DNA from: Candidatus Falkowbacteria bacterium
GTDB taxonomy: Bacteria > Patescibacteriota > Patescibacteriia > UBA11705
Assembly: GCA_003518055.1 (NCBI GenBank)
Contig: DOZJ01000002.1
Location: forward strand, 299,785 to 363,784
DNA: 64,000 bases
Direction of reading: 5' to 3'
Of this stretch, positions 7,104 to 49,435 are shown in pieces. Below the pieces are notes generated by a model. That model was not told the origin of the DNA. It searched no databases and worked only from the letters and a program-made list of their open reading frames with translations. Numbering within the stretch: the stretch's first letter is position 1; every line of letters begins with the position of its first letter. A program made the translations under genes and the position numbers.

Positions 7104-7979
7104 ATGGCTCTTTTGGTAAAAACAAAAAACCAAGATAAACATCATGATCTCGAGGCGTTGAGTGTTCTGGCCAATGAGATTCGCCGCGACATAATCAAAA
7201 TGTTATATGAAGCCGGATCCGGTCATTCCGGTGGGTCTTTGGGTATGACTGATATTTTTACGGCTTTGTATTTCGCCGTTTTGAACCATGATCCCAAAAA
7301 ACCGGCTTGGAGCGGCCGCGATCGGGTTTTTTTGTCAAATGGTCACATCTGCCCGGTCTGGTACGCGACTTTGGCTCACGCCGGCTATTTTCCGTTATCT
7401 GAACTCAAGACTCTGCGTAAACTCGGTTCACGGTTACAAGGTCATCCTCACAATTTGTCCTTGCCCGGAGTGGAGAATACCGGTGGTCCTCTTGGTCAGG
7501 GAATTTCTCAGGCAATCGGCGCCGCCCTTGCCTTGCGTTTGGATCAAAAGAAAAATTATGTTTTCTGTCTCATGAGCGACGGCGAGTTGAACGAAGGCCA
7601 GACATGGGAGGCCTTTATGTTCGCGGCCAAATATAAATTAAACAATCTCACTGCCGTTATTGATCGCAACAATATTCAAATTGACGGCTATACCGAAGAT
7701 ATCATGCCGCTCGAACCATTGGCTGATAAGTTCAAAGCATTCGGCTGGCATGTGCTTGAAATAAACGGTCACAACATGCCTGAAATAATCTCCGCTCTTG
7801 AAACATCAAAAGTTATTTATGAAAAACCCGTGGTGGTTATCGCCCACACGATTCCGGGCAAGGGGGTGAGTTTTATGGAAAATCGGTTTGAGTGGCACGG
7901 AAAACCGCCAGCCAAAAACGAACGCGATCAAGCGTTAAAAGAATTAATGAAAGAACGCAAAGATTATGTTGGTTCGTGA
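7104..7979 (+). CDS. Transketolase, N-terminal (TPP-binding) subunit
   Basis: GSGHSGGSLGMTDIF and HPHNLSLPGVENTGGPLGQG motifs; split-gene arrangement with the next ORF. Confidence 0.9.
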   Translation: MALLVKTKNQDKHHDLEALSVLANEIRRDIIKMLYEAGSGHSGGSLGMTDIFTALYFAVLNHDPKKPAWSGRDRVFLSNGHICPVWYATLAHAGYFPLSELKTLRKLGSRLQGHPHNLSLPGVENTGGPLGQGISQAIGAALALRLDQKKNYVFCLMSDGELNEGQTWEAFMFAAKYKLNNLTAVIDRNNIQIDGYTEDIMPLEPLADKFKAFGWHVLEINGHNMPEIISALETSKVIYEKPVVVIAHTIPGKGVSFMENRFEWHGKPPAKNERDQALKELMKERKDYVGS

Positions 7980-8940
7980 TGTGTACAATGAAAAAACAAT
8001 AGGCCGAGAACCCACACGCAACGGCTATGGGGCGGCTTTGGTTGAACTTGGCCGAAAAAATAAAAATATCGTGGTCTTGACCGGCGACTTGGCCGAATCC
8101 ACGCGCGCTCAGATGTTTCAGGCCAAATACCCAGAGCGGTTTTTTGATGTCGGAGTGGCTGAACAAAATATGATGGGCGTCGCGGCCGGACTCGCGCTCA
8201 CCGGCAAAATTCCTTTTGTCTCAAGTTACGCGGTCTTCAGCCCGGGCCGCAATTGGGATCAGCTCCGAGTAAGCGTTTGTTACAGCCGGGCCAATGTCAA
8301 AATAATCGGCGCACACACCGGTTTGTCGGTCGGGCCGGATGGCGCCACGCACCAAGCGCTTGAAGACATTGCGATCACTCGTTGTCTGCCGAATTTAACC
8401 GTCATCGCGCCCTGTGACGTTCATGAAACCAAAAAAGCCATTTTCGCCGCGGCCAAAATTGCCGGTCCGGTTTATATTCGTCTCGCCCGTGAGGCCACAC
8501 CGGCTTTCACCACTCCCAACACTGATTTTCAGGTTGGTCGGGCGGATATCTTGCGGCGAGGGCATCATGTTTCCATTATTGGCTGTGGGCCGATTTTGTA
8601 CGAAGCCTTGCAGGCTGCCCACAGTTTGAGTCAAGAGGGGATTGAGGCTGAGGTGATCAATTGCCACACCATAAAACCCATCGATCACAAAACTATTATC
8701 GCCTCCGCCAAAAAGACCGAGGCGGTCGTTACGGTCGAAGAGCACCAAATCATCGGCGGTCTCGGCAGCGCCGTAGCCGAAGTTTTATCCGCACATTATC
8801 CGGTTCCGCTCAAGATGATCGGGGTTAGAGACACTTTTGGCGAATCCGGCACCCCGAATGAACTCATGATCAAGTATGGCTTGGATCGGAATCAAATTAT
8901 CGACACGGTTCGTCGTATGATGAAGTCCTTATTGAAATAA
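7966..8940 (+). CDS. Transketolase, C-terminal (pyrimidine-binding) subunit
   Basis: 324 aa; overlaps the N-terminal subunit stop; typical transketolase C-terminal domain sequence. Confidence 0.9.
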   Translation: MLVRDVYNEKTIGREPTRNGYGAALVELGRKNKNIVVLTGDLAESTRAQMFQAKYPERFFDVGVAEQNMMGVAAGLALTGKIPFVSSYAVFSPGRNWDQLRVSVCYSRANVKIIGAHTGLSVGPDGATHQALEDIAITRCLPNLTVIAPCDVHETKKAIFAAAKIAGPVYIRLAREATPAFTTPNTDFQVGRADILRRGHHVSIIGCGPILYEALQAAHSLSQEGIEAEVINCHTIKPIDHKTIIASAKKTEAVVTVEEHQIIGGLGSAVAEVLSAHYPVPLKMIGVRDTFGESGTPNELMIKYGLDRNQIIDTVRRMMKSLLK

Positions 8941-9096: not shown

Positions 9097-10092
9097 ATGG
9101 CTGGAAAAAAAGTGTTTGTTACTCGTCAAATTCCGGACGCCGGGCTTAAATTGTTAAAACACGCCGGATACAGCGTTAAAATCAGTCAAACTGGCCGCGC
9201 GATCAAGCACTCTGATTTAATTGGTGAATTAAAAACCGGTTATGATGCCTTGCTTTGTTTATTAACCGATAAAATCGACGGCGCGGTAATGGATGCCGGT
9301 TTGCCTCGGCTCAAAGTGATCGCCAATTACGCGGTCGGATTTGATAATGTCGATCTTAACGCCGCCAAAGACCGCCGACTCATCATCACCAACACTCCGT
9401 CTGATGTCGTCAATGAATCCGTGGCTGAGCATGTCTTGTCTTTGATTTTTTCTCTTGCGCATCGGGTCGTCGAGGCAGACAATTTTACCCGCGCCGGCAA
9501 ATACAAAGGTTGGCAGCCCGATTTATTCATCGGCCAAAATTTGATGGGAAAGACACTCGGCATTATCGGTCTTGGCCGGATCGGCAAAGCCACGGTTAGG
9601 CGCGCCGTCGGGATGGATATGAAAGTGGTTTATCATGATGTCGTCAGAGACAAACAGTTCGAACAACAATATCGAGCCAAGTTTTTGTCTCAACGAGAGC
9701 TTTTGAAAACCGCGGATTTTGTCTCGCTGAATGTGCCGCTTGTGCCGGCAACCCGTCATTTGCTGTCAACCGCCCAATTCAAACTGATGAAAAAAACCGC
9801 CTTTGTCATCAATACTTCGCGCGGACCGGTTGTTGATGAGATGGCTTTGCTCAAAGCGCTAACCAAGCATGAAATCGCCGGCGCCGGTCTTGATGTGTTT
9901 GAGTGTGAACCGTTGATCGATTGTAATCCGCGCGATCATTATGAATTGCGAATGATGAATAATGTGATCATGACGCCGCACACCGCTTCGGCCACGGTTG
10001 AAGCGCGCGCTGATATGGCGGTGGTCGCGGCCAAAAACATTATTGCCGCTTTATCCGGCAAGCGTCCGCCTAATCAGGTGGTATTTAAATAA
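9097..10092 (+). CDS. D-isomer-specific 2-hydroxyacid dehydrogenase (glyoxylate/hydroxypyruvate reductase-like)
   Basis: NAD-binding GIIGLGRIGKA, catalytic-domain layout, 331 aa. Confidence 0.8.
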   Translation: MAGKKVFVTRQIPDAGLKLLKHAGYSVKISQTGRAIKHSDLIGELKTGYDALLCLLTDKIDGAVMDAGLPRLKVIANYAVGFDNVDLNAAKDRRLIITNTPSDVVNESVAEHVLSLIFSLAHRVVEADNFTRAGKYKGWQPDLFIGQNLMGKTLGIIGLGRIGKATVRRAVGMDMKVVYHDVVRDKQFEQQYRAKFLSQRELLKTADFVSLNVPLVPATRHLLSTAQFKLMKKTAFVINTSRGPVVDEMALLKALTKHEIAGAGLDVFECEPLIDCNPRDHYELRMMNNVIMTPHTASATVEARADMAVVAAKNIIAALSGKRPPNQVVFK

Positions 10093-10110
10093 TCTTTTCT
10101 GTTCTGATAA

Positions 10111-10152
10111 ATGTGTCACGCCGAAATTATTGAAGGCATGACACATTTTTTT
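10111..10152 (+). terminator. Rho-independent terminator (ATGTGTCA...TGACACAT + T6)
   Basis: 8-bp stem and T-run directly after the dehydrogenase gene. Confidence 0.7.
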
Positions 10153-10222
10153 AAAAAAATGTTCACAATTGGTTGGGCGAAAGAATCTGTTTGTGGTATA
10201 ATTTATTTGAAATTAATTATCT

Positions 10223-10594
10223 ATGGCCGAACAAACTCTTTCAACCAAGGCGATCAAATTCGTGGCCAAGGATTTGGTGCTGGATTTTTTGTCTTGGCCG
10301 TTTTGGTGGTATTCGCGCGGCGCAGTGCTCGCCGGACGTCGTTTTGTTGATACCATCGCCGAGGGCAGCCGCTCTTTGGCTTTGACCGTATGGATCAAAA
10401 ATGTTTTTGTTCCTATGTACGGCGATTATACCTGGCAGGGGAGATTGATTAGTATTTTAATGCGTCTGGTTCAAATAGTGATCCGCAGTATAATTTTTTG
10501 CGGCTGGATTATTTTTGCACTAGTGGTTTTTATCTTGTGGTTTGTTTTGCCGGTATTTGTGGTCTTTCAGCTTATATTTAATCTGGTTTATTGA
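10223..10594 (+). CDS. Membrane protein, hypothetical (123 aa)
   Basis: Extended -10 TGGTATAAT upstream; multiple TM segments; stop overlaps the next gene. Confidence 0.5.
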   Translation: MAEQTLSTKAIKFVAKDLVLDFLSWPFWWYSRGAVLAGRRFVDTIAEGSRSLALTVWIKNVFVPMYGDYTWQGRLISILMRLVQIVIRSIIFCGWIIFALVVFILWFVLPVFVVFQLIFNLVY

Positions 10595-10599
10595 CGATT

Positions 10600-13371
10600 A
10601 TGGCTGATCCAAAGTCAAATTCCCACGATTATCACTTTATGGTTTGCGCTTCGTGCCAGGGCACGGGCGGACTCGATGGCAAGGTTTGTTCCGATTGCCG
10701 GGGCTTAGCCGTTGTAATGCCGTTTTACGGCCGGTTTTTGTATTGGGGCAAAACAGTAAATTCACTGCACATTTTTGTCGATCGAGTAATTGAAATTCTA
10801 AATAAAATCATTAATCTGATTCTGATTCTCATCGGAACGTTCGGTTTTTTTCTTCTGTTTTATTTTGACTGGGCGACCGGTTTTGACCGGCTGTTTACTT
10901 TGGCCTATTGGCTGACACCGTCGTTTGAAAAAACCATCTTTTGGTTCACGATTCTGGCGGATTTGTATCTATATTATCGATTGATTCAGGGCAGCGAGCC
11001 CAAGAATCAAGTGCTGCAAAAAATTTTTGTGACCGAACAACGGCCGCCGGATTTTATTGATTGGGCTTATATTCATCGCCAGCCGGAAAGATTAAAGATC
11101 GATGTCTCTCGCTCATTTTCAGTCTCAGCGATCAGTTTGGTTGAGCAGTCATGGCAGGTGGCCAAAAATTTTGAACACGCAAGCGTTGGGAGGCTCCATC
11201 TTTTTGCTTCAGTCCCGGCGTTTAACGATGGCGCCGTTATTTGGGGCCGGCTCGGCATTAACGCAGAAAAATTCAAAGAAAAGTTAGCGCGGGCTTTGGA
11301 TTGGCAGGTTGAAGGCCGGGCGCGCCAAACATATTTATCAGCCTTGCTGCACAAGGTTTTATTGGTCAGCTATCTCGAAGCCTACACCGAAAGGCGGCGC
11401 AAAGTGGATATTCCCGAAGTGATTGCCGCCTTGATCAACCTCGATACTTTGACCAAAAACGAACAGCTTGAAGATTTAATCGGGAAGATTCTAATTGACC
11501 TTGATTTGAATTATCAAAAAATGGCCAATGTCGTCACCTGGGTTCGTTTGCAGCGACAGCTCCGTGAGCGGCTCAGTCGGTTTCGTCATAGCGCCCAATA
11601 CAAACCTCGGTCAGGTTTGGATCGAGCCATGACCGGTGTGGCCACGCCTTTTCTTGATCAATTCAGCACTGATTTGACCAAACAGTCGATGCTTGGGCAG
11701 CTTTTTCCCTGTATCGGCCGCGACAAAGAATTTGATCAACTGTATCGTGTGTTGGAGGGCAGCCGCGACGGTGTGCTGCTGGTTGGTAATGTCGGTGTCG
11801 GCCGATCCACTATTTTGTATGGCTTGGCTGAGCGCATGGTGGAAGAAACCGTACCGGCCGCGCTCCAAGATAAACGGCTAGTGAGTATCAATGTGTCTCG
11901 CTTGATTGGCGGCGTGAGCGCTGAGGAGGCTGAAGGCCGGCTACTGACGTTGGCTGATGAAGTGATCAAATCGCGCAATATTGTTCTCGTCATCGAAGAC
12001 CTTCATAACATTGTTGGTGTTTCCGGGTCCGGATCGGGGCTGGATTTATCCGAGGTTTTGGCTGAGCTGATGCGCAAGCGGTTGTTTATGATTATCGGTA
12101 CGACCACTCCGAGTGATTATTCTGGCACGATTGAAAAAAGTTCATTGTTTGAAGTGTTTAAGTCGGTAAAAATCAATGAACTGGAAATCAATGACGCCAT
12201 TCAGGTCTGCGAGGCCAAAAGCGGGCCGATTGAATACAAAAATAATGTTTATTTTTCTTACGATAGTATTGAAAAATCGGTTATTCTAACCGACAAATAT
12301 TCCCACGACAAATATCTGCCGGAAAAAGCCTTGGAAGTGCTGGAAGAGGTCGCCGTCAATGTCCGCAAGAATAAAGGAGAAAAAAATGTGGTGACGGCCG
12401 AGGATGTGGCGGTCGTGGTGGCGGAAAAAACCGGCGTCAAGGTTACCGGGGTGACTCAGGATGAAAGTAAAAAATTGCTCAACCTCGAACAGGATATCCA
12501 TCGACGCGTCATCGGTCAGGACGAAGCGGTCAAGGTGATTGCAGCCAGTTTGCGGCGTGCTCGAGCTGAACTGCGTGATGAAAAACGGCCGATTTCCAGT
12601 TTTCTTTTTCTTGGCCCGACCGGCGTCGGTAAGACTGAATTAGCCAAGGCGGTGTCCGAGGTTTACTTTGGCTCAGAGGAGCAAATGCTTCGTTTTGATA
12701 TGAGTGAATTTCAAGAGCAAAGCAGTATCGCGCGTTTGATTGGCAACGGCACTGAGCCGGGTGTCTTGACCGAAGCGGTCCGTAAAACTCCTTATGCCTT
12801 GCTTCTCTGCGATGAGATTGAAAAAGCCCATCCGGATATATTGAATTTATTTTTACAAGTGATGGATGACGGCCGGCTGACCGACGGCAGCGGCGAAACA
12901 ATTGATTTCACCAATTTGATTATCATTATGACGAGTAATGCCGGCGCTCAGCTGATCCAAGACAAAATTCACGACGGATTGGTGATTGAAGATATCAAAG
13001 AATTATTGATCAACGAAGAACTCAAAAAATATTACCGGCCTGAATTTATCAACCGGTTTGACGGCGTAATCGTCTTCCGGCCGCTGACCATGGAAAACGT
13101 GATCCAAATCGCACGGCTGATGGCGGCCAAGATTATCAAACGGCTGGCGGAAAAAGAAATCATCCTCGAAATCTCCGACGCGGCCGTGGCTGAATTGGCT
13201 GAGCAGGGATTTGATCCCCGCTTTGGCGCCCGACCTTTGCGGCGGGTGATGCAGGAAAAAGTTGACGATACGCTGGCCAACTATCTACTTGAAGGCAAGG
13301 TCTCGCGCCGTGACAAAATCATTCTCGAACCCGGCGGACAGATCAAAGTTGAAAAAGCCGACCAAATTTAA
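10600..13371 (+). CDS. Clp/Hsp100-family AAA+ ATPase (ClpC/ClpB-like) with an N-terminal DnaJ-type CxxCxGxG zinc finger and 2 TM helices; D1 Walker motifs degenerate
   Basis: CASCQGTGG...CSDCRG zinc finger, then two hydrophobic helices and Clp_N-like repeats. D1 P-loop is GNVGVGRST (Lys replaced by Arg) and the Walker B position reads LVIEDLH. D2 is canonical (GPTGVGKTELAK, LLCDEIEKAHPD, sensor MTSNAG). Confidence 0.8.
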   Translation: MADPKSNSHDYHFMVCASCQGTGGLDGKVCSDCRGLAVVMPFYGRFLYWGKTVNSLHIFVDRVIEILNKIINLILILIGTFGFFLLFYFDWATGFDRLFTLAYWLTPSFEKTIFWFTILADLYLYYRLIQGSEPKNQVLQKIFVTEQRPPDFIDWAYIHRQPERLKIDVSRSFSVSAISLVEQSWQVAKNFEHASVGRLHLFASVPAFNDGAVIWGRLGINAEKFKEKLARALDWQVEGRARQTYLSALLHKVLLVSYLEAYTERRRKVDIPEVIAALINLDTLTKNEQLEDLIGKILIDLDLNYQKMANVVTWVRLQRQLRERLSRFRHSAQYKPRSGLDRAMTGVATPFLDQFSTDLTKQSMLGQLFPCIGRDKEFDQLYRVLEGSRDGVLLVGNVGVGRSTILYGLAERMVEETVPAALQDKRLVSINVSRLIGGVSAEEAEGRLLTLADEVIKSRNIVLVIEDLHNIVGVSGSGSGLDLSEVLAELMRKRLFMIIGTTTPSDYSGTIEKSSLFEVFKSVKINELEINDAIQVCEAKSGPIEYKNNVYFSYDSIEKSVILTDKYSHDKYLPEKALEVLEEVAVNVRKNKGEKNVVTAEDVAVVVAEKTGVKVTGVTQDESKKLLNLEQDIHRRVIGQDEAVKVIAASLRRARAELRDEKRPISSFLFLGPTGVGKTELAKAVSEVYFGSEEQMLRFDMSEFQEQSSIARLIGNGTEPGVLTEAVRKTPYALLLCDEIEKAHPDILNLFLQVMDDGRLTDGSGETIDFTNLIIIMTSNAGAQLIQDKIHDGLVIEDIKELLINEELKKYYRPEFINRFDGVIVFRPLTMENVIQIARLMAAKIIKRLAEKEIILEISDAAVAELAEQGFDPRFGARPLRRVMQEKVDDTLANYLLEGKVSRRDKIILEPGGQIKVEKADQI

Positions 13372-39163: not shown

Positions 39164-41917
39164 ATGAGCATTTTTACCAAAATTTTCGGTGATCCAAATG
39201 ACAAAGAAATCCGGTCGCTGCAACCCATTGTGGCGGCGATAAATAGCTTAGAGGCGGAAATTAATCAGCTATCTGACGATGAATTACGAGCCAAAACATC
39301 ATATTTCAAACAGCTGCTTCAATCAGGGAAAACTCTGGATGACATCCTACCCGAGGCTTTTGCCGTTGTTCGGGAAGTGTCAAAACGAACCACCGGCCTG
39401 CGGCATTATGATGTCCAGCTGATTGGCGGCATTATCCTGCATCGCGGTCAAATTACGGAAATGCGCACCGGTGAAGGCAAGACCTTGGTCGCGACGCTCG
39501 CTGTTTACCTCAACGCGCTCGAAGGCAAGGGCGTTCATGTGATTACGGTTAATGATTATTTGGCCAAGCGTGACGCCGTCTGGATGGGACAGGTGTACAA
39601 TTTTCTCGGTTTATCTATCGGCGTGATTCAAGGTGAAATGAAATCATTTTTGTATGATGAATCATTGATAAACTCAGCCAGCGATGACACTCATGACGAA
39701 GTGGCATCATTCAAAGTGGAATCAGCCTATCTTCGCGCTTGCTCTCGCCGTGACGCCTACCACGCCGACATTACTTACGGCACCAACAATGAATTCGGTT
39801 TTGATTATCTTCGCGATAACATGGCTTACAGCCTCAAAGACAAAGTCCAGCGCGATCTGCATTACACGATTATTGATGAAGTGGACTCGATTTTGATTGA
39901 TGAAGCGCGCACACCGCTGATCATCTCTGCTCCGGCCGAGGAGTCAGCCTCTTTATACCAACAATTCGCCGCCATGGTGCCCAAGCTGGCTGAAAATGAA
40001 GATTACAATGTGGATGAAAAAATGCGGGCCGCCACGTTGACTGAAAATGGTTTGAACCGCATGGAAAAAATGCTCGGTCTCGGTAATATATATAATGAAG
40101 GCGGGGTCATGATGGTGCATCATCTGGAACAAGCGTTAAAAGCCCACGCATTATTTAAAAAAGATCGCGATTATGTCATCAAAGATGGTGAAGTGATTAT
40201 CATTGATGAATTTACCGGCCGGTTGATGGTTGGCCGGCGTTATTCAGAAGGGCTGCATCAGGCGATTGAGGCCAAAGAAGGCGTGGAAGTCAAAAAAGAA
40301 AGTCTGACGCTCGCCACCATTACGTTTCAAAATTTATTCCGCATGTATAAAAAGTTATCTGGTATGACCGGTACGGCCGCGACCGAAGCGGAGGAATTCG
40401 CCAAAATTTATAATTTGGAAGTTACTATCATCCCAACCAACAAGCCGGTGGTCCGAGATGATTTGCCGGATCGAGTGTATGCGACGGTCGAAGGCAAGTA
40501 CAAGGCCGTGATCAATGAAATAAAAAAGATTCATGCCACCGGCCAGCCGCTTCTCATCGGGACGGTTTCAATTGAGCAAAATGAGATGTTTGGCCGATTG
40601 CTGCATCAGGCGGGAATTACCCATAATTTGCTGAACGCCAAACAGCACGAGCGCGAAGCGGAGATCATCGCTCAGGCTGGCCGTGCCGGCGCCGTCACGG
40701 TCGCCACCAATATGGCCGGCCGCGGCGTAGATATTATTCTCGGCGGCGCGCCGTTTAACCAAACCGAATATGAAAAGGTCAAAAGCGTTGGCGGCTTGTT
40801 TGTGCTTGGGACTGAGCGGCATGAAGCCCGCCGCATTGATAATCAGCTTCGCGGCCGCTCCGGCCGTCAGGGCGACCCGGGCCGAACCCAGTTTTATTTA
40901 TCCATGGAAGATGATGTGATGCGTATTTTTGGTTCAGACCGCATCAAGAACATGATGCAGTCATTGGGCATTCCCGAGGATGTGCCGATTGAACAAAAAA
41001 TTATTACCAGCTCAATCGAAAAAGCCCAAAAGCGAGTTGAGGGCCACAACTTTGATATCCGCAAACATTTGGTGGAGTATGATGATGTGATGAATAAACA
41101 ACGGGAGTCAATTTATACCCGCCGCGATGAAGTTTTGCGTCTGGCCGAGGAAAAGCCGGCCGAGTTAAAACCGCTGGCATGGAGTATGATTGAAAATGAA
41201 ATTGAACAAGTCGTGTCATTTCATACCGCCCAAGTCCAAAATGGTGATTTTGATCTCAAAGAAATTGTCGAGGTTTCTCGGACCATTTTTCCTGTCCCTG
41301 CCGGATTTGAAACAGACTTGAAAAATTTTGTTGCTCAATCAAAAGGCCGTGAAGAGAACTTTGAACTCAAAAGTGAAATTACAAATTATATATTAAACGC
41401 AGCCAGAAACGCTTACCAAGACTTGGAAACGCGTCTGGCTGAGACCACTAGCGAACCTGAAGTGATGCGCAAGGTGGAAAAGGAAATCATGCTGCGCAGC
41501 ATCGATAATCTTTGGGTTGAACATCTCGAGGCGATTCAGGCGCTGCGTTCGAGTATCGGTCTCCGCGGCTATGCTCAACGCGATCCACTGGTTGAATACA
41601 AACGCGAATCCCGCCATTTGTTTATCCAGCTGGAAAATCTTATCCAGCATCAGATGGTTTACTCGATTTTTAAAGTTGGTTTGGCGCCGGAGATGAAATC
41701 ATCTATTATGCAGGGTGTGAAAAATTATTCCGCCCCGGCCAAGACTGCCGGCGGGATGAAAAATCCCTACGAAACCGAGCAGCGACGTGAATCAACTGCA
41801 AATAAAAAAGCATACGACGCCACCGGCAAAAAAGTCGGACGCAATGATCCTTGTCCCTGCGGCGCGAAAGATGATTCCGGTAATCCGATAAAATTTAAGA
41901 AGTGCCATGGGGCGTAA
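39164..41917 (+). CDS. secA: Preprotein translocase ATPase SecA
   Basis: 917 aa with DEAD-like motifs and a C-terminal zinc-binding CPCGAKD...KKCHG. Confidence 0.95.
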   Translation: MSIFTKIFGDPNDKEIRSLQPIVAAINSLEAEINQLSDDELRAKTSYFKQLLQSGKTLDDILPEAFAVVREVSKRTTGLRHYDVQLIGGIILHRGQITEMRTGEGKTLVATLAVYLNALEGKGVHVITVNDYLAKRDAVWMGQVYNFLGLSIGVIQGEMKSFLYDESLINSASDDTHDEVASFKVESAYLRACSRRDAYHADITYGTNNEFGFDYLRDNMAYSLKDKVQRDLHYTIIDEVDSILIDEARTPLIISAPAEESASLYQQFAAMVPKLAENEDYNVDEKMRAATLTENGLNRMEKMLGLGNIYNEGGVMMVHHLEQALKAHALFKKDRDYVIKDGEVIIIDEFTGRLMVGRRYSEGLHQAIEAKEGVEVKKESLTLATITFQNLFRMYKKLSGMTGTAATEAEEFAKIYNLEVTIIPTNKPVVRDDLPDRVYATVEGKYKAVINEIKKIHATGQPLLIGTVSIEQNEMFGRLLHQAGITHNLLNAKQHEREAEIIAQAGRAGAVTVATNMAGRGVDIILGGAPFNQTEYEKVKSVGGLFVLGTERHEARRIDNQLRGRSGRQGDPGRTQFYLSMEDDVMRIFGSDRIKNMMQSLGIPEDVPIEQKIITSSIEKAQKRVEGHNFDIRKHLVEYDDVMNKQRESIYTRRDEVLRLAEEKPAELKPLAWSMIENEIEQVVSFHTAQVQNGDFDLKEIVEVSRTIFPVPAGFETDLKNFVAQSKGREENFELKSEITNYILNAARNAYQDLETRLAETTSEPEVMRKVEKEIMLRSIDNLWVEHLEAIQALRSSIGLRGYAQRDPLVEYKRESRHLFIQLENLIQHQMVYSIFKVGLAPEMKSSIMQGVKNYSAPAKTAGGMKNPYETEQRRESTANKKAYDATGKKVGRNDPCPCGAKDDSGNPIKFKKCHGA

Positions 41918-41934
41918 TTAACAGCCCGAAGCCC

Positions 41935-41972
41935 GAAGGCGAAGATCGCGATCTTCGCCTTCGATTTATTTT
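41935..41972 (+). terminator. Perfect-palindrome terminator GAAGGCGAAGATCGCGATCTTCGCCTTC
   Basis: Immediately after the secA stop. Confidence 0.65.
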
Positions 41973-42087
41973 ATGAATACCATTGCAATCACGACATTCA
42001 CGATTGTTTTTATTTTGTGCTAAAATATTAACAAATAATATTCATCCTACTACTATAAAAAAATCCGCTGATTTTTCAGCGGTTTTA

Positions 42088-42306
42088 TTATCCCCAGATC
42101 AGTCCGGCGGCCACAGCCTCAACAATAACGCAGCCTAACCACAACACCACATCACGGAAAAATACCGGATGATCAAAATCACATTTGGTGGCGTGTTCAA
42201 TCGGTTCCGCGATGGAACTGTAATAATCATGGAAAAAAATTTTGGCTCCGAGCAGGACGAGTACCAAGGCAAAAACTACGAAGATAATCCAGCCGGTTAC
42301 GTTCAT
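42088..42306 (-). CDS. Small membrane protein (72 aa)
   Basis: Two TM helices. Confidence 0.4.
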   Translation of the reverse strand: MNVTGWIIFVVFALVLVLLGAKIFFHDYYSSIAEPIEHATKCDFDHPVFFRDVVLWLGCVIVEAVAAGLIWG

Positions 42307-42498
42307 TTGGCCACCTCCTATGGGGTTGAGATTCAGTCATGTGATATAACAGCAAAAATTATCACATTGTGTTTCATCTGTCAAATAGGTTATCTTGTTC
42401 ACAAGTTTAGATGTTGTGGGGTTGCAAATAATACGTTTTTTTATTAAAATGAAGGCACATTTTGTTTTTAGTTTAACTAATGACCGCAATTTATCTTT

Positions 42499-44541
42499 AT
42501 GGCAAAGCTGACGGAAAAATTCAAAGTTCGCTTGTGGCTGATTGTAATTCTGGGCGTGGCCGTTTTGGCCGGCGTCTATGATTATCCGCCCATTCTCAAT
42601 CAGGGAATCAACAAGTTTAATCAGGTGTTCAAGACATCAATATCGACTGTAACCAGCCGGCCGTTTATTTTGGGGCTGGATTTACAGGGCGGAACTCATT
42701 TGGTTTACGAAGCTGATACATCGGCCATCGGATCAGGGGAGGAAGGCGCCGCGGTTGACGGTGTCCGCGATGTAATCGAGCGCCGTGTCAATTCTCTCGG
42801 CGTGTCAGAACCCGTGGTTCAAACCAATCAAACCGGCGACAAATGGCGGGTGATTGTTGAGTTGGCCGGGATCCGCGATGTCAATGAAGCCATCAAGGCG
42901 ATCGGTGAGACGCCGCTGCTTGAATTCAAAGAACAAAATGATGCACCGGCTCGTACCCTGACCAAAGAAGAAAAACAAGAGCTTGAAGTCTTCAACAAAA
43001 ACGCCGAAGCCAAAGCCAATATTGTTTTGGACAACGCGCTGGCCGGCGGTGACTTTTCCGCCTTGGCCGCTGCCAACTCAGACGATGTTTTGACCAAAGA
43101 TCAAGGCGGTAATCTTGGTGTTCTGACCGGCGACCAGATTGAATATCAGGCTATATATGAATTAATAACCTCGATGAATCCGACCGAAGCGCAAGTATTG
43201 AATAAACTGGTTGATAATAATGATGGATTTAACATCGTAAAAATAAATGACATCAAAGACGGTGAGCTTCAAGTCAAAGCCAGTCACCTGCTAATTTGTT
43301 TTGACGGTAAAACCGGCTGCAATACCGGCGCGACGCGAGAACAGGCCGAAGGTAAAATCAATGAATTGAAAGCCGGAGCAAACGCTGAAAACTTTGCCGC
43401 TTTGGTTAAATCCAATTCCACCGAACCGGGCGCGAGCGTAAATGCCGGCGATTTGGGTTGGTTTTCCCGCGGCGTGATGGTTCCGGAATTTGACACTGCG
43501 GTTTTTGATATGCCAACCGGCGAAATTTCGAGCGTAATCGAAACCGACTTTGGTTTTCATTTGATTTTCAAAGAAGGGGAGCGCCAAGGCAAAAATTATG
43601 ACGTTTCCCGCATTTTTATTAATACCAAAACCGAAAGAGATATTCTGCCGCCAACCGATCAGTGGAAAAATACCGAGCTGAGCGGCAAACATCTGGAGCG
43701 CGCTTGGGTTGCTTTTGATCCGAGCACCAACGCCCCGCAAGTCAGTCTGCAATTCAACGATGAGGGCGATCAGCTGTTTGCAGATATTACTGGTAGAAAT
43801 GTCGGCAAGCCGGTGGCCATTTTTCTTGACGGCTCAGCGATCAGTATTCCAGTGGTTAATGAAAAAATTACCGGCGGTGAAGCCGTCATATCCGGTTCAT
43901 TTGATTTGGCTGAGGCCCGACTTTTGTCTCAGCGGCTGAACGCCGGCGCCTTGCCCGTGCCGATCGAACTGGTATCTCAGCAAACCGTCGGCGCCACTTT
44001 GGGCCAATCTTCTCTAACCATGAGTCTCAAAGCCGCGTTGATTGGATTTTTATTGGTAGCTCTGTTTATGATTGGGTATTACCGAGTACCCGGTGTTATG
44101 GCGGTGGTTGCCCTGTTATTTTATACGTCTATTCTTCTGTTATTATTTAAATTAATTCCGGTGACATTGACTTTGTCGGGTATTGCCGGGTTTATCTTAT
44201 CAGTCGGTATGGCTGTGGACGCGAATGTTCTTATCTTTGAGCGATTCAAGGAAGAGTTAAAAAGTGGCAAACCGTATGGATCCTCTCTTGAGGAAGGGGC
44301 TAAGCGAGCTTGGCCTTCGATCCGTGATGGCAACGCGACCACGTTGATTACTTGTTTCATCTTGGCTTGGTTTGGTACTAGCAGTATTCAAGGTTTTGCC
44401 ATTACTCTTGGAGTTGGTGTGATGATCAGTATGTTTTCCGCTATCGTGGTTACTCGATCGTTACTCAAAATATTCATCGGAATAAAAGAGAACAATAATA
44501 ATTTATTCTGGTTCGGAGTAAGACGAAATATCGAGAAATAA
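42499..44541 (+). CDS. secD: Protein-export membrane protein SecD with a parvulin-type PPIase domain embedded in the periplasmic P1 head
   Basis: SecD TM1, P1 domain and C-terminal 5-TM core are present. Residues about 250-365 (...ASHLLICFD...GDLGWFSRGVMVPEFDTAVFDM...GFHLIFKEGE) match the PpiC/parvulin fold. Confidence 0.8.
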   Translation: MAKLTEKFKVRLWLIVILGVAVLAGVYDYPPILNQGINKFNQVFKTSISTVTSRPFILGLDLQGGTHLVYEADTSAIGSGEEGAAVDGVRDVIERRVNSLGVSEPVVQTNQTGDKWRVIVELAGIRDVNEAIKAIGETPLLEFKEQNDAPARTLTKEEKQELEVFNKNAEAKANIVLDNALAGGDFSALAAANSDDVLTKDQGGNLGVLTGDQIEYQAIYELITSMNPTEAQVLNKLVDNNDGFNIVKINDIKDGELQVKASHLLICFDGKTGCNTGATREQAEGKINELKAGANAENFAALVKSNSTEPGASVNAGDLGWFSRGVMVPEFDTAVFDMPTGEISSVIETDFGFHLIFKEGERQGKNYDVSRIFINTKTERDILPPTDQWKNTELSGKHLERAWVAFDPSTNAPQVSLQFNDEGDQLFADITGRNVGKPVAIFLDGSAISIPVVNEKITGGEAVISGSFDLAEARLLSQRLNAGALPVPIELVSQQTVGATLGQSSLTMSLKAALIGFLLVALFMIGYYRVPGVMAVVALLFYTSILLLLFKLIPVTLTLSGIAGFILSVGMAVDANVLIFERFKEELKSGKPYGSSLEEGAKRAWPSIRDGNATTLITCFILAWFGTSSIQGFAITLGVGVMISMFSAIVVTRSLLKIFIGIKENNNNLFWFGVRRNIEK

Positions 44542-44590: not shown

Positions 44591-45517
44591 ATGAAAAAAA
44601 CATTTGACATTATCAGCAAGAAAACAATCTGGCTGTCAATCTCTGGTTTCCTAGTTGTTACCAGCCTGGTTTTTTTGGCGGTCTGGGGTTTGAAGCCGGG
44701 ACTCGATTTTACCGGTGGCAGTTTGCTTGAGGTCCGGTTCACGCAAAATGCCCTACCCGACACCTCGACCTTGAGGCAACATATGAATAGCATGAATTTG
44801 GGCGGCGAAGTTGTTGTCCAACCAACCGACAATGATGGTTATATTATCCGTTATCAAGACATCAGTGAAGATACGCATCAAAAAATCGTAACCTCTCTAA
44901 GAGAGGAATTTCCGGCTGAAGACGAGGGTCAAACCAATTTGGAAGAAGTCAGATTTGAATCAATCGGTCCATCCATTGGAAAAGAACTTCGAACGCAAAC
45001 CGCATATGCCATATCCATTACCCTGATCGCCATTATTGCTTATATTGCTTGGGCTTTCCGCAAAGTTTCTTGGCCAATCAAATCATGGAAATACGGCGTA
45101 ATCGCGGTGGTGGCGTTGTTCCACGATATTATTATAACCATGGGTCTGTTTTCATTTCTTGGTCATTTTTATAATGTCGATGTCGGGTTACCGTTCGTGG
45201 CGGCTCTGTTGACTATTCTTGGCTACTCGGTAAATGACACAATTGTGATGTTTGATCGAATCAGAGAAAACATCGGCCGGCTTAGCCACTCTGATTTTCT
45301 TGGTTTGGTCAATCGATCAATCAATGAAACCTTGTCTCGTTCTATTAATACGACATTCACGACGCTCCTAGCTCTGATCGCCATCTTCTTTTGGGGGGGC
45401 GTCACGATCAAATATTTTGCCCTCGCGATGATTTGCGGTATTTTCTTTGGTTCTTACTCCTCGATTTTTGTCGCCAGTCCGCTTCTGGTAATCTGGGGAA
45501 AATTTCGGCAGAAGTAA
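44591..45517 (+). CDS. secF: Protein-export membrane protein SecF
   Basis: 308 aa, SecF topology, adjacent to secD. Confidence 0.9.
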   Translation: MKKTFDIISKKTIWLSISGFLVVTSLVFLAVWGLKPGLDFTGGSLLEVRFTQNALPDTSTLRQHMNSMNLGGEVVVQPTDNDGYIIRYQDISEDTHQKIVTSLREEFPAEDEGQTNLEEVRFESIGPSIGKELRTQTAYAISITLIAIIAYIAWAFRKVSWPIKSWKYGVIAVVALFHDIIITMGLFSFLGHFYNVDVGLPFVAALLTILGYSVNDTIVMFDRIRENIGRLSHSDFLGLVNRSINETLSRSINTTFTTLLALIAIFFWGGVTIKYFALAMICGIFFGSYSSIFVASPLLVIWGKFRQK

Positions 45518-45532
45518 GTTAAAGACAAATCC

Positions 45533-45562
45533 AAAAAACGAGACGTCGACGTCTCGTTTTTT
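45533..45562. terminator. Bidirectional perfect-palindrome terminator AAAAAACGAGACGTCGACGTCTCGTTTTTT
   Basis: Flanked by A6 and T6; marks the left boundary of the GC-rich island. Confidence 0.7.
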
Positions 45563-45652
45563 GTTTATCTCTTTGACTAGAGTTACGGGGGATCTTCCTG
45601 CCAACAGCCGTGCTGTTGGCAGGATGGAGGCGGGAGGAGGATAACCGCAATC

Positions 45653-45681: not shown

Positions 45682-45748
45682 TCTTCTTCACGAAAGTTTT
45701 CGATGAAGTTTGTGCCTTAGGTTTGAGGCGGGGGAACGGGGGCTGTGG

Positions 45749-46432
45749 GCGTCAGGTTCGGATGGCTCGACTCGGCGCCTTGACGAGCAGCGAGATGCCG
45801 GTCGCCTTCCAGAAGAGCCAGTTGATCCCGTAGAGGCTGGTGTAGACCACCGCGATCGCGAAGGCCAGCCCACAGCCGATCACGACCGTGTTCAGTAGGT
45901 GCTTCGGATCGAGGACGGTGCCGGTGATCAGGCCGTTTGCCAGCGAGTTGGCCAAGCCGGCGAGCATGATCAGGTTGAAACGTTCGCGCAGGGTCAGGTC
46001 GCGATCCCGCTCGCAGAAAACGAGCATCAGGACCAACAGCTGAGCGAATGCGAAGAGGAGCAGATAGAACTCGAGACTCGCCGCCGCATGCAGATTTGCG
46101 TACTGAATTGGGGCGAGCATCGCGGCCTCGAACATGACCCACATCCTGGCGAACGCTGGGTCGCAGCCGTACGCGCGGAAGTTGTTGGCGACGTAGACCG
46201 CGCCCTGGAGCAGCATGTAGATCGTGAAGAACACCATGATGGTCTGGAACAGCGGTGACTCGATTTGGAGCGTGGGGAGGTAGGTCGCTGCCCACTCGCT
46301 CATGGACGCGTGGTCCATGAACGGGGGCATCTCGACGATGAACAACCGAAACGCCAGGCTGGCGAGAAACGCCAGCGCGATGTTCACGTACGCCCACCGA
46401 TCCACCTGGAAGAACTTGCGACTTTCGTCCAT
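45749..46432 (-). CDS. GC-rich 6-TM membrane protein A (226 aa from the second ATG), paralogue of 47253..47948
   Basis: GGAGGG Shine-Dalgarno 5 nt upstream of ATG 46432; six hydrophobic helices; shares motifs with protein B (EMPPF.../ELPVYF..., LLQGAVYVANNF/LMFGAVYYANHF). Confidence 0.65.
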
Positions 46433-46500
46433 GATTCCCTCCATGTCAGCGCCTTAGCGCGTGTTCAGTGTACAGTTGACGTTGGACGTTTAGTCCGCGG

Positions 46501-46632
46501 TTACCGACTGCGCCACGGCTGCCCCTGCTCGATGGCCTTGGTTTCGGCTTCGCTCAGGGCGTCGCGGTGCATGTCCATCAGGATGGAGGCGACCACGAAC
46601 AGGTTTCGAACGGCGGCGGCGATGCGCTTCAT
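46501..46632 (-). CDS. 43-aa peptide MKRIAAAVRNLFVVASILMDMHRDALSEAETKAIEQGQPWRSR (not in the ORF track)
   Basis: GGAGA Shine-Dalgarno 8 nt upstream; lies between the module-1 promoter and membrane protein A; GC-rich codons. Confidence 0.45.
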   Translation of the reverse strand: MKRIAAAVRNLFVVASILMDMHRDALSEAETKAIEQGQPWRSR

Positions 46633-46674
46633 TTAGAGTATCTCCTGTCTGGTTGTCGAAGATCTTAATCAACC

Positions 46675-46703
46675 ATTATATCACATTTTTCATAAAAAGT
46701 CAA
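46675..46703 (-). promoter_or_regulatory. Module-1 promoter, perfect TTGACT-N17-TATAAT (minus strand)
   Basis: The reverse complement reads TTGACTTTTTATGAAAAATGTGATATAAT. Confidence 0.7.
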
Positions 46704-46735
46704 TAGTAAGTGGTTTTTTTACTCTTATTTATAAC

Positions 46736-46769
46736 AAAAAAGCCACCTGCTTTGATGCGAGGTTGGCTT
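46736..46769 (-). terminator. Module-2 terminator (minus strand): AAGCCAACCTCGCATCAAAGCAGGTGGCTTTTTT
   Basis: Hairpin + T6 immediately 3' of the lipoprotein gene and just upstream of the module-1 promoter. Confidence 0.6.
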
Positions 46770-46802
46770 GGTCACTAGCGATGTAGTGTTGAGTACCTAT
46801 GT

Positions 46803-47240
46803 TCAGTTCGCGTAGTCGTCGTACTTCGTCAGCCGATCCCACCGACTATAGACAGGGGAGATCAGGTCGCTCGAGAGTGACAGGTTGTGCTCCCGCTCGG
46901 CTCGGTCGAACAGCTGGTGCAGTCGGACTGACACCAGCTGCAGCTCGCCGCTCTGGCGATATTCCGAGCTGTACTTGGGGTTCGGGGAGAGCACATCGTC
47001 GTAGGCGATTCGGAGATCTCGCCACTCCTGCCAGTCTCGGACTTCCGTGTGGATGTCCTCGGTCTCGACCTGACGAATCAGGTCGTTAAGGTTGGTGACG
47101 CAGTCGTCGTAGGCCAGCAGGTACTGCTGAGCCTTGGTCAGACTCCCGCAGCCCGACCCGCCGGTGATGGCGGCCAAGAGCAGGAGCGCGAAGGCGATGA
47201 TGATGGCGATGGATCCGAGCGATGACTTGGGCTTGTTCAC
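46803..47240 (-). CDS. GC-rich putative lipoprotein (145 aa, GTG start)
   Basis: AAGGAGA Shine-Dalgarno 6 nt upstream of GTG; signal peptide ending LAAITGGSGC; begins 12 nt after the protein B stop. Confidence 0.55.
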   Translation of the reverse strand: MNKPKSSLGSIAIIIAFALLLLAAITGGSGCGSLTKAQQYLLAYDDCVTNLNDLIRQVETEDIHTEVRDWQEWRDLRIAYDDVLSPNPKYSSEYRQSGELQLVSVRLHQLFDRAEREHNLSLSSDLISPVYSRWDRLTKYDDYAN

Positions 47241-47252
47241 GCGTTGTCTCCT

Positions 47253-47948
47253 TCAGGCCGCAGCCGTCTTGACCGGGCGCTTGATGAACCAGCATACGAC
47301 GCGCTTGGTGTAGATGATCAGAAGCGACGCAGCCGAGCTGGCCGCGAAGCACACAACCACCGTGGCTGCGCCCCAGGCCAGGAAATTCCAGGCCGCGTTC
47401 GGGCCGGAGATCAGGAAGGCCGCGAAAGCGCCGAGCGCCACGTAGCCGGTGATCAGACTGGCCATGAAGCCGAGCGTCTGCCGCCAGCTGGCGCGAAGCG
47501 TCTTGAAGTGATTGGCGTAGTACACTGCGCCAAACATGAGTGTGTGGAGAGCGGTGAAGAAGATGAAGAGGCTCGTCACCGGCGTCATCGCACTCACAAC
47601 GCAGCAGCCGACCGCAGTGGCAAAGCCGAACACCCCGAGAATCAACGAAAGCCACCACACGCTGTTTTCCCGGTTTTCCCGGACGTCGCGCAGGTGCTGG
47701 ATGCTCATGATGATGAAGGCCGCGACCGAGAGCCAGAGCACGCCTTGGAGCAGGTGGGCTCCGCCGAGGTCGGTCACCATGACCGACATCTGTCCCGACT
47801 GCACCGTCCACCAGTTCTCGATGGTGGGATAGATGTGCTCGGTCGCCGGGTGGTTCACGAAGTACACCGGCAGCTCCAGCCACCCTGATATGATGGCGCC
47901 GAAACCGAAGATGACGTAGAGCAGGATCACGGAGTCGGGTTTCTTCAT
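47253..47948 (-). CDS. GC-rich 6-TM membrane protein B (231 aa), paralogue of protein A
   Basis: GGGAGA Shine-Dalgarno; six TM helices; internal duplication of the GAVY.AN.F motif. Confidence 0.65.
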   Translation of the reverse strand: MKKPDSVILLYVIFGFGAIISGWLELPVYFVNHPATEHIYPTIENWWTVQSGQMSVMVTDLGGAHLLQGVLWLSVAAFIIMSIQHLRDVRENRENSVWWLSLILGVFGFATAVGCCVVSAMTPVTSLFIFFTALHTLMFGAVYYANHFKTLRASWRQTLGFMASLITGYVALGAFAAFLISGPNAAWNFLAWGAATVVVCFAASSAASLLIIYTKRVVCWFIKRPVKTAAA

Positions 47949-48026
47949 TGACTTTCTCCCATGCGCTATTCTCGCGTCATGTTGCTATGTTTCCGTGGTG
48001 AACGTTGTTAAAGATCTTAATCGACA

Positions 48027-48055
48027 ATTATATCATATTTTAATAAAAAAGTCAA
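48027..48055 (-). promoter_or_regulatory. Module-2 promoter, perfect TTGACT-N17-TATAAT (minus strand)
   Basis: The reverse complement reads TTGACTTTTTTATTAAAATATGATATAAT; the surrounding 50 bp are about 85% identical to the module-1 promoter region. Confidence 0.7.
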
Positions 48056-48319
48056 CAATTGTCTTATTATTTAACTTAAATTAGATTAAAAATCAATGTG
48101 AACAATTGACGGTTCCAGATATTTTTGGCCTAATTCTTGACTGAAGCTTCTTGTTAGTCTAAAATCACTTGACATATATCTTGAATAGTATAAAATATTA
48201 TATAAGCTTATCGTCTTGACAAAGTTTTATAAAGATGTTATACTTTAATATAATTAAATTTATTTATCTAAGCTGATATATAACTAATATAAGTTTGCTT
48301 GTCGGCTTTTCATGATTTT

Positions 48320-49435
48320 ATGACTCACATGAGCAACAACGTAGATTTTGAAAAGTTCTTCCTCTCATTATTGGAAGAGCTGGCTGCGCGTGAACAAGAA
48401 GTACTCAAAAAACGCTATCAGCTGACAGGTGATGTGGCGCAAAAAAACACCTTGAAGCAGATTGGCGATGAGTATGGAATTACACGCGAACGCGTCCGCC
48501 AAATTGAAAAAGAGGCCATCAATAAATTGGTCAAGTTGGCCAAGGCCGATAATTACCTCACCGAGCTTCAGGCGATCAAAGATTCTTTGGTCCGCTATCT
48601 CGAGCGCCGGGGTGGTTTGGCGCGCGAAGACGAATTGGTGTCAGATCATTTGTATAATGATTACAAATTGACCACTCTGCATCAAAACGCCTATCTGTTT
48701 GTGCTGGAGCATATGATTGATGAAGTGGACCAACACGAAGCCGGTGATGATTATCACTCATTTTGGATTTTGACCGCAGTTGACCGCCAGAGCATTTTTG
48801 CCTTGGTCAATGAAGTGATCAATCACTTGGTCAAAAAAAGCGCGGTTCAGGATGAATCATCTTTGCTTTCAGCCATCAAGAATGAAATTCTCCCCAAAGT
48901 TGAATTGGCTCATTTTGATCCTTTGACCGGCAAACACACTGACGTTACGGTTGAAGATTTTATCCGCACCTATTTGTCCATCACCAAGAAGGTGGAAAAA
49001 AATATTCTCGACAACTGGGGTTTGGCTGAGTGGGCTGATGTGAAACCAAAGAAATTGTCAGACAAAATCCATTTGGTATTCAAAAAACATGAAAAACCTC
49101 TGCACTTCCGTGACGTGGCTGAGTTGATCAACACCGCGAATTTCGACAAAAAGAATATTTGCGCTGCCACGGTTCACAATGAACTCATCGCTAACGAAGG
49201 CTATGTCCTTATCGGCCGCGGCATCTACGCCAAGAAAGATTGGGGATATACTCCGGGCACTGTGACTGATATCATCAGCCAGATTTTGAAAGACAACTCA
49301 CAGCCGATGACCAAAGAAGACATTTACGACGCGGTTTTAAAACAACGTCAAGTCAATCCTTCAACCATTTATCTGTCACTCATCAACAAAAACAAGTTCA
49401 ATAAATTATCCAACGGTTTGTTTGAACTCAAATAA
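48320..49435 (+). CDS. DNA-binding protein with a sigma-70 region-4-like HTH (hypothetical regulator)
   Basis: LKQIGDEYGITRERVRQIEKEAINKL resembles sigma region 4.2. Upstream is an extremely AT-rich segment with three CTTGAC(A/T) boxes at about 30-45 bp spacing. Confidence 0.55.
   Translation: MTHMSNNVDFEKFFLSLLEELAAREQEVLKKRYQLTGDVAQKNTLKQIGDEYGITRERVRQIEKEAINKLVKLAKADNYLTELQAIKDSLVRYLERRGGLAREDELVSDHLYNDYKLTTLHQNAYLFVLEHMIDEVDQHEAGDDYHSFWILTAVDRQSIFALVNEVINHLVKKSAVQDESSLLSAIKNEILPKVELAHFDPLTGKHTDVTVEDFIRTYLSITKKVEKNILDNWGLAEWADVKPKKLSDKIHLVFKKHEKPLHFRDVAELINTANFDKKNICAATVHNELIANEGYVLIGRGIYAKKDWGYTPGTVTDIISQILKDNSQPMTKEDIYDAVLKQRQVNPSTIYLSLINKNKFNKLSNGLFELK

Follow-up and report, generated by a model that had tools for sequence, protein, structure and literature searches.

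The P1 head of SecDF is described in a passage of PMC7793623, with reference to Tsukazaki 2011 and Furukawa 2017, as binding the emerging polypeptide and pulling the chain from SecYEG by a swing driven by the proton gradient. PpiD, which photo-crosslinks to residue 359 in the P1 head of SecD, acts together with SecDF, both being needed for late translocation (PMC7793623, PMC9643414). The holo-translocon is bound by SurA, whose two parvulin domains are docked on the SecDF P1 head by AlphaFold (PMC9987972). In M. pneumoniae, a chamber on the Sec translocon/SecDF is built from PrsA-like peptidyl-prolyl isomerase (PPIase) lipoproteins (bioRxiv 10.1101/2025.04.25.650208 and 10.1101/2024.09.05.611430). 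Here a secD gene of Candidatus Falkowbacteria, a lineage of the candidate phyla radiation (Patescibacteria), is described, in which a predicted pair of parvulin-type domains is part of the SecD chain itself. The gene lies on a stretch of 64,000 nucleotides (assembly GCA_003518055.1, contig DOZJ01000002.1, positions 299,785 to 363,784), called the window below, from whose first letter all nucleotide positions are counted. The architecture and topology of the protein, the fold and active-site conservation of its insert and the distribution of the insert throughout a lineage are reported as observed.

With the canonical SecD and SecDF proteins (T. thermophilus 3AQP/5YHF, D. radiodurans 5XAM/5XAN and E. 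coli 5MG3) the protein shares the plan of a first transmembrane segment (TM1), P1 and five further TM segments, together with a P1 base and head, the GG motif, the TM4 Asp of (G)xAVDxNVL and a secF partner gene. The canonical proteins are without the insert of ~225 residues, having ~16–25 residues at this site in T. thermophilus and ~26 in E. coli. E. coli SecD has extra P1 material of its own, but at a different, more N-terminal site.

Among the chaperones, SurA (1M5Y) is the best match in the Protein Data Bank that spans both domains of the insert. The two have in common a tandem of parvulin domains in the same order, of which, in SurA, the first is reported inactive and the second catalytically competent. 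They differ in that the SurA_N/C core is missing here, the interdomain angle is another one and the insert is embedded in SecD, whereas SurA is soluble; the host here is moreover probably monoderm, so that there would be no BAM for delivery. PpiD is likewise a parvulin chaperone with a membrane anchor at the translocon exit, works with YfgM and contacts the SecD P1 head, but it is a polypeptide of its own, in which a SurA_N-like domain is combined with one inactive parvulin domain, while here SecD is the anchor and one parvulin domain looks active. PrsA resembles the module in being a parvulin foldase outside the cytoplasm that works right after Sec translocation, in bacteria that have no outer membrane. 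It is, however, a lipid-anchored dimer with the parvulin nested in an NC chaperone domain, whereas the foldase here would sit inside a motor subunit. The Mycoplasma pneumoniae dome proteins Mdp444/436/489 are PrsA-like and physically associated with SecDF and the translocon, but form a separate multi-protein chamber. No description of a SecD–parvulin fusion was found in full-text literature searches, for which subscription journals were mostly outside coverage. The fusion is conserved but apparently undescribed; in public databases it is visible through automatic Pfam matches.

The insert in the P1 region of SecD

The secD gene is one unbroken reading frame in the list of open reading frames (ORFs). 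Its 680-aa product scored 379.4 bits with the NCBIfam model TIGR01129 (secD; cut-off 244.4), and six Pfam families were matched on the whole protein: Rotamase_3, Rotamase, SecD_1st, SecDF_P1_head, SecD_SecF_C and Sec_GG, the last four all exceeding the Pfam gathering scores. T. thermophilus SecDF (3aqp) was matched with E = 2e-76 by phmmer, and a full-length AlphaFold2 (AF2) model matched the SecDF crystal structures 5yhf/5xan with E ~1e-20 in Foldseek. The parts of the protein are the following, with the predicted local distance difference test score abbreviated as pLDDT.

42499–44541, + strand: secD reading frame, 680 aa (ORF list; TIGR01129; phmmer and Foldseek matches to SecDF)
42514–42582, + strand: TM1, aa ~6–28 (AF2 helix 6–28; hydropathy segment 7–33)
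42757–42939, + strand: N-terminal piece of the P1 base, SecD_1st aa 87–147, ending in the LLEFKE strand (PF21760, E = 2.8e-16)
42940–43254, + strand: parvulin-like domain 1, degenerate, aa ~148–252 (Rotamase_3 match when scanned alone; SurA P1 alignment; pLDDT >90)
43255–43578, + strand: parvulin domain 2, canonical, aa 253–360 (Rotamase_3 match when scanned alone; SurA P2; PrsA and Pin1 folds)
43579–43665, + strand: return strand and linker, aa 361–389, which extend the final strand of domain 2 (one continuous AF2 strand, 352–375) and return to the P1 head
43666–43959, + strand: P1 head subdomain, aa 390–487 (PF22599, E = 1.7e-29, profile positions 17–114 of 114)
43963–44478, + strand: TM2–TM6, aa 489–660, including GMAVDANVL (Pfam SecD_SecF_C aa 489–657; AF2 helices 503–660; alignment to TM4 of 3aqp)

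Lys/Arg residues ahead of TM1 place the N-terminus inside and P1 therefore outside the membrane. L141, E142, F143 and K144 of the LLEFKE strand were invariant or nearly so in an alignment of 129 full-length homologues, in which residue conservation was counted throughout. D574 in GMAVDANVL aligns with AVDGNVL of 3aqp TM4 and was invariant in 54 sequences; the T. thermophilus residue D340 is what we take to be the proton-path Asp of the TM4 xAVDxNVL motif. With the model score, the TM1-P1-TM2-6 topology, the TM4 Asp and an adjacent secF all found, the 680-aa protein is, as judged from its sequence, a genuine SecD with an intact motor and no sign of gene decay.

The insert of ~225 aa (aa ~148–376, roughly nt 42940–43626) was delimited by alignments to insert-less Patescibacteria SecD and to T. 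thermophilus SecDF, which agreed on its boundaries. Residues 57–155 align with T. thermophilus residues 34–127 and residues 377–657 with 144–423, the insert standing in place of the short Thermus segment mentioned above. In the insert-less SecD proteins of Patescibacteria (459–468 aa) a linker of 15–25 aa follows the invariant (T)PLLEFK, ahead of the head. From ~aa 377 the sequence realigns with T. thermophilus SecDF from residue 144 onward and with the insert-less SecD. By these alignments the insert lies where the P1 base meets the P1 head, right after the LLEFKE strand and at the very beginning of the head.

On the whole protein, Rotamase_3 was matched at aa 245–356 with E = 2.1e-33 and 115.8 bits (cut-off 22.5 here and below), and Pfam Rotamase with E = 1.8e-27. 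When scanned alone, aa 146–257, containing domain 1, matched Rotamase_3 with E = 2.2e-10 and 41.5 bits over profile positions 19–115 of 116, and aa 258–409 did so with E = 1.2e-22 and 81 bits. Because each segment matches the family by itself, the insert is predicted to be a tandem of two parvulin-type domains, a SurA-like pair. Domain 1 aligns with SurA P1 and domain 2 with SurA P2 (E = 8e-14); SurA 174–360, comprising both of its parvulin domains, aligned with residues 168–358 of the protein with E = 1.5e-14 in phmmer.

A preliminary description of this locus, made before any database search, had proposed a PpiC-type parvulin domain inserted in the P1 head of an otherwise canonical SecD at 43240–43600 (aa 248–368), quoting the motifs ASHLLICFD, GDLGWF and FGFHLIF. 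The motifs are present in this segment, the Rotamase_3 and TIGR01129 scores, which are far beyond chance, bear out both the domain and its canonical surroundings, and the Pfam search of the segment gave a rotamase-fold match and not the ordinary SecD P1 head alone. The extent proposed was too small: a parvulin domain is located there, but the insert runs from ~42940 to 43626 and a second, degenerate domain had been missed. The placement in extracytoplasmic P1 holds, with the exact site corrected to the base/head junction.

The full-length AF2 model was built from 54 sequences and had a mean pLDDT of 78.8, with 85–93 in the insert; in Foldseek it also matched SurA (E = 7e-8) and isolated parvulin domains. 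A model of the insert only reached a pLDDT of 91.2 and a predicted template modelling score (pTM) of 0.71. It matched SurA 1m5y with E = 5e-10 over 220–234 columns at a root-mean-square deviation (rmsd) of 13–18 Å, from which it follows that the same two folds are present in a different mutual orientation. Domain 2 was superimposed by Foldseek on the PPIase domain of S. aureus PrsA with a target-normalised template modelling score (TMt) of 0.82 and an rmsd of 2.7 Å, and on that of Pin1 with a TMt of 0.75 and 2.9 Å.

Both AF2 models contain two continuous β-strands of 24 residues, aa 243–266 (nt 43225–43296) and aa 352–375 (nt 43552–43623). The former joins the last strand of domain 1 to the first of domain 2; the latter connects the final strand of domain 2 with the return segment. 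The models suggest that these long strands form a rigid β-ribbon stalk. The family consensus of the return strand, VSRILI, resembles ASHILI, the first strand of parvulins, except that Arg stands in place of His, a hint that domain 1 is a circularly permuted parvulin whose sheet is completed by the return strand. A test of the permutation by Pfam gave non-discriminating scores of 42.0 bits for the permuted construct, 40.5 for domain 1 alone and 41.5 for host strand plus domain 1.

Conservation, distribution and relatives of the insert

The hydrogen-bond tetrad of parvulins, which we take to be H59, H157, T152 and C113 in Pin1, and the proline pocket, with Pin1 L122, M130 and F134 as reference, were located in domain 2 at these residues:

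H263, tetrad His: 128/129
H354, tetrad His: 129/129
T349, tetrad: T or S in 129/129
E309, tetrad acidic residue: acidic in 122/129 (E 84, D 38), G in 7
L319, proline pocket: 126/129
M327, proline pocket: 126/129
F331, proline pocket: 129/129

The active-site His which had been presented as conserved in the preliminary description is so in both tetrad positions. The Asp of SurA P2 is the counterpart of E309 in the alignment. The loop behind the first strand of domain 2 is bordered by two cysteines, C267 and C274; both were found in 127 of the 129 sequences and both were gone in the other two, never one alone. Given this co-occurrence they are expected to form a disulfide, which would fit the extracytoplasmic location and would probably staple domain 2.

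At the position of the second His, domain 1 has N245, and this position is variable (N 75, Y 15, G 10, S 7, E 6 and H 6 of 129). No His-bearing first strand was matched in domain 1, where the Rotamase_3 profile match begins at position 19. From its sequence, domain 1 keeps the parvulin fold and has almost certainly no enzymatic function. Domain 2, on the other hand, is by score and modelled fold a member of the parvulin family, and appears to keep everything required of a parvulin prolyl isomerase. The inserts are only 34–49% identical across sequences, yet the catalytic residues of domain 2 are conserved as strictly as its structural core. This strictness, set against the free drift at the equivalent positions of domain 1, argues for selection acting on catalysis in domain 2.

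The 120 best clusters at 90% identity, drawn from NCBI, JGI, ENA and Logan and 54–77% identical to the protein, were annotated as 'SecD' only, and 120/120 carried Rotamase Pfam domains. Those with names belonged to Candidatus Falkowbacteria, Magasanikbacteria, Kuenenbacteria, Buchananbacteria, Parcubacteria and 'Patescibacteria group', the closest (77%) being Ca. Falkowbacteria CG10_big_fil_rev_8_21_14_0_10_39_11. When one genome per species was scanned with an alignment of the insert, 497 of the first 600 candidate stretches contained relatives. In each of the best 80 loci the entire 265-aa insert query is spanned with 42–71% identity; their titles add Uhrbacteria, and fragmentary matches add Veblenbacteria and Doudnabacteria. 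For an insert-less SecD (P0308), the 120 best relatives were all 432–474 aa long and without Rotamase domain, and the named ones were Paceibacterota and Nomurabacteria. Taxon statements here rest on the record titles given by the depositors, since the names of divergent cluster representatives yielded next to no taxonomy. On these sequence surveys the insert appears as a lineage-specific yet clade-wide feature in Patescibacteria, the rule in one large clade and absent from another, and judged by names the insert-bearing lineages look like ABY1-type groups. The survey of SecD homologues advised in the preliminary description thus found the insert in all of the 120 nearest clusters and the 80 species-level loci; the architecture, held there to be non-standard, is so relative to the SecDs that have been studied, but not within this clade.

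Many species-representative metagenome-assembled genomes (MAGs) with a Patescibacteria-type SecD (loci L002, L004, L007, L011, L012, L021 and others) are titled 'uncultured Gammaproteobacteria bacterium isolate binchicken_...', and single related loci bear the titles Binatia and Acutalibacteraceae. Such names are evidently placeholders or wrong, so that record titles are a poor guide to taxonomy here.

To find relatives of the module outside SecD, aa 140–400 were searched against 1.84 billion representatives. The search returned 31 clusters with E ≤ 1e-30; of the 150 representatives listed, ~25 were SecD of the insert type, a number that is no measure of family size, since at 50% identity SecD sequences fall together in few clusters. 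The signature H-x3-C-x6-C was confined to three groups: the SecD inserts, three PrsA-like proteins (P0195, P0212 and P0222) and a family of ~280 aa.

No match to SurA_N, SurA_N_2 or SurA_N_3 was found by Pfam in the SecD, while the free relatives P0195 and P0222 have them, and the NCBIfam models for PrsA, SurA and PpiD scored far below their cut-offs on the SecD. By these scores the module is not a member of the SurA, PrsA or PpiD families, though it may work like them. P0195 (504 aa) has weak thioredoxin-like matches with WCPHC at its C-terminus, both Pfam scores being below gathering; it would unite a prolyl isomerase and a thiol-disulfide oxidoreductase in one membrane-anchored protein.

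The ~280-aa family consists of a TM anchor, a SecDF_P1_head domain (Pfam E = 3e-19) and a parvulin domain with H-x3-C-x6-C. It is rare, with about 10 clusters; its proteins include P0157, P0158, P0160, P0192, P0215, P0277–P0283 and P0288. Its genes were located at:

10001–10846 of locus L081: head+parvulin gene
7961–8806 of locus L084: head+parvulin gene

The family shares with the SecD insert a parvulin domain 55–65% identical to domain 2 and a SecD-type P1 head of 39–50% identity. Unlike the SecD described here, it has the head before the parvulin and lacks both the motor TM bundle and a first parvulin domain. By its sequences it is a second, independent joining of a P1 head with this parvulin subtype, and a functional link between head and parvulin is supported by the separate pairing of the same two parts. 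The genes sit in variable regions beside recombinase/integrase, restriction-modification, HTH and Zn-ribbon/TPR/trypsin genes; the expectation that they adjoin an insert-less secDF was ruled out by these neighbourhoods. No head+parvulin paralogue was present in the 64-kb window.

Possible roles at the translocon

The hand-over from the Sec channel to folding helpers across the membrane is poorly understood, and prior evidence for contacts between head and parvulins is indirect or from a single organism. From the sequence, the models and the analogy with the chaperones above, it is rather probable that the module serves as a foldase or holdase tethered to the translocon on the mobile P1 head. 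SecD, with SecF the proton-driven partner of SecYEG, would have gained the tandem parvulin module in P1. The module would travel with the head and capture unfolded chains leaving SecYEG. Domain 1 would most likely act as scaffold or substrate-binding surface, whereas domain 2 would bind Xaa-Pro segments and isomerise Xaa-Pro bonds before release. Captured chains would be kept from backsliding and aggregation and would be released partly folded, so that the SecD module would do in cis what PpiD, SurA, PrsA and the Mycoplasma PrsA-like dome proteins do in trans. Enzymatic activity, substrate hand-over and coupling to the power stroke of the head are what we infer here beyond the observed features. 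The idea that chains undergo prolyl isomerisation or are chaperoned where they leave the translocon is plausible, and it fits the published contacts between SecD and parvulin chaperones. A stronger version, in which the power stroke times capture, isomerisation and release in an integrated translocation-folding motor and the module replaces free PpiD-, SurA- or PrsA-type chaperones in the lineage, appears doubtful.

Several points weigh against a tethered foldase. PrsA's PPIase activity can be dispensed with for secretion in B. subtilis (review PMC12445088), and conserved catalytic residues are therefore no proof of selected isomerisation. The acidic residue of the tetrad is mostly Glu, and Gly in 7/129, where characterised parvulins have Asp or Cys. 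The SurA_N-type core is missing, which would leave only the parvulin domains and the P1 head to provide holdase capacity, if there is any. The same parvulin subtype also occurs in metagenomes in the PrsA-like SurA_N + parvulin proteins, ~50% identical to domain 2. Finally, the pTM of the full-length AF2 model is only 0.38, which leaves its global arrangement uncertain.

The most serious competitor, although on balance unlikely, is a pure holdase or substrate clamp, in which the parvulin folds are binding surfaces that hinder backsliding like a ratchet, and catalysis has been lost or does not matter. Domain 1, already without both catalytic His, would suit such a clamp, whereas the catalytic residues of domain 2 have stayed strict across divergent inserts in which domain 1 drifted. 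Parvulin domains reported to be inactive are retained elsewhere, namely in PpiD and as the first parvulin domain of SurA. PPIase-dead PrsA still supports secretion in B. subtilis (PMC12445088), and doubts over the importance of the parvulin domain of PpiD are noted in PMC9643414, both of which favour the clamp.

It is improbable that the role is structural or regulatory, the insert tuning or limiting the F/I swing of the P1 head or docking SecDF to another envelope component such as the wall, an S-layer, YidC or SecYEG, without any action on substrates. A mechanical spacer needs neither a catalytic tetrad nor a proline pocket, and the same parvulin subtype is also found with a stand-alone P1 head without motor. 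The position of the insertion exactly at the base/head junction would agree with such a role, as would the strands 243–266 and 352–375 if they make up a rigid stalk as modelled; P1 is also known to tolerate lineage-specific additions elsewhere (E. coli SecD; NCBIfam SecDF models ranging from 993 to 1403 positions). An artefact of assembly or annotation, by frameshift, misassembly or a chimeric ORF, came into question only since the source is probably a MAG. It has next to no probability and was ruled out, as the same nested order was found in 120/120 nearest clusters and 80 independent species-level genomes, the SecD frame is kept before and after the insert and nothing was found in favour of an artefact.

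If the integrated translocation-folding motor were to hold, the fusion would be a 'Rosetta stone', making the contact between parvulin and SecD head, of which only weak signs are seen in E. coli, a general and ancient interface. A conserved covalent fusion of two parvulin domains to the same head, present in hundreds of genomes, counts as independent evolutionary evidence of a functional interface; as a natural fusion it supports the emerging model and would be useful, and somewhat unexpected, to the Sec specialist. It offers a compact single-chain system for studying coupled export and folding, and adds to the view of small-genome Patescibacteria as merging envelope functions. The annotation 'SecD' hides the foldase part.

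Gene context of secD

The gene is located between secA and secF, with these neighbouring features:

39164–41917, + strand: secA, 917 aa, upstream of secD (Pfam SecA_DEAD E = 3e-128 and other SecA domains)
41934–41963, + strand: terminator-like hairpin 3' of secA, with a T-run behind its 13-bp stem
44591–45517, + strand: secF, 308 aa (TIGR00966 294.6 bits, cut-off 160)
45532–45563, + strand: terminator-like hairpin after secF, 14-bp stem, reading on both strands

The spacing between secD and secF is 49 nt. In the 80 related loci, secF was found 3' of secD wherever enough downstream DNA was available, and secA lay ≤4 kb upstream of secD in ~47/80. The hairpin after secA would set this gene apart from the secDF unit, and with terminator-like hairpins 3' of both secA and secF, secD-secF looks like a unit of its own.

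The gap between secA and secD (41918–42498, about 540–580 nt) contains, besides the strong terminator hairpin at 41934–41963, a bidirectional hairpin at 42065–42082. When this gap was searched for yajC, an arrest peptide or an RNA element, no yajC, no convincing small ORF and no Rfam match were found. The 64-kb window as a whole contains zero tRNA genes and zero Rfam families at the gathering threshold.

A GC-rich island with sharp edges begins directly after the secF terminator, at 45700–47900, with 58–67% GC against ~45% around it. It holds three ORFs on the minus strand (45752–46444, 46803–47240 and 47253–47948) with hydrophobic products without Pfam match. The island is followed by a gap of 25–35% GC (47900–48300) and then by a Sigma70_r4/HARE-HTH protein (48299–49435), and may be foreign DNA.

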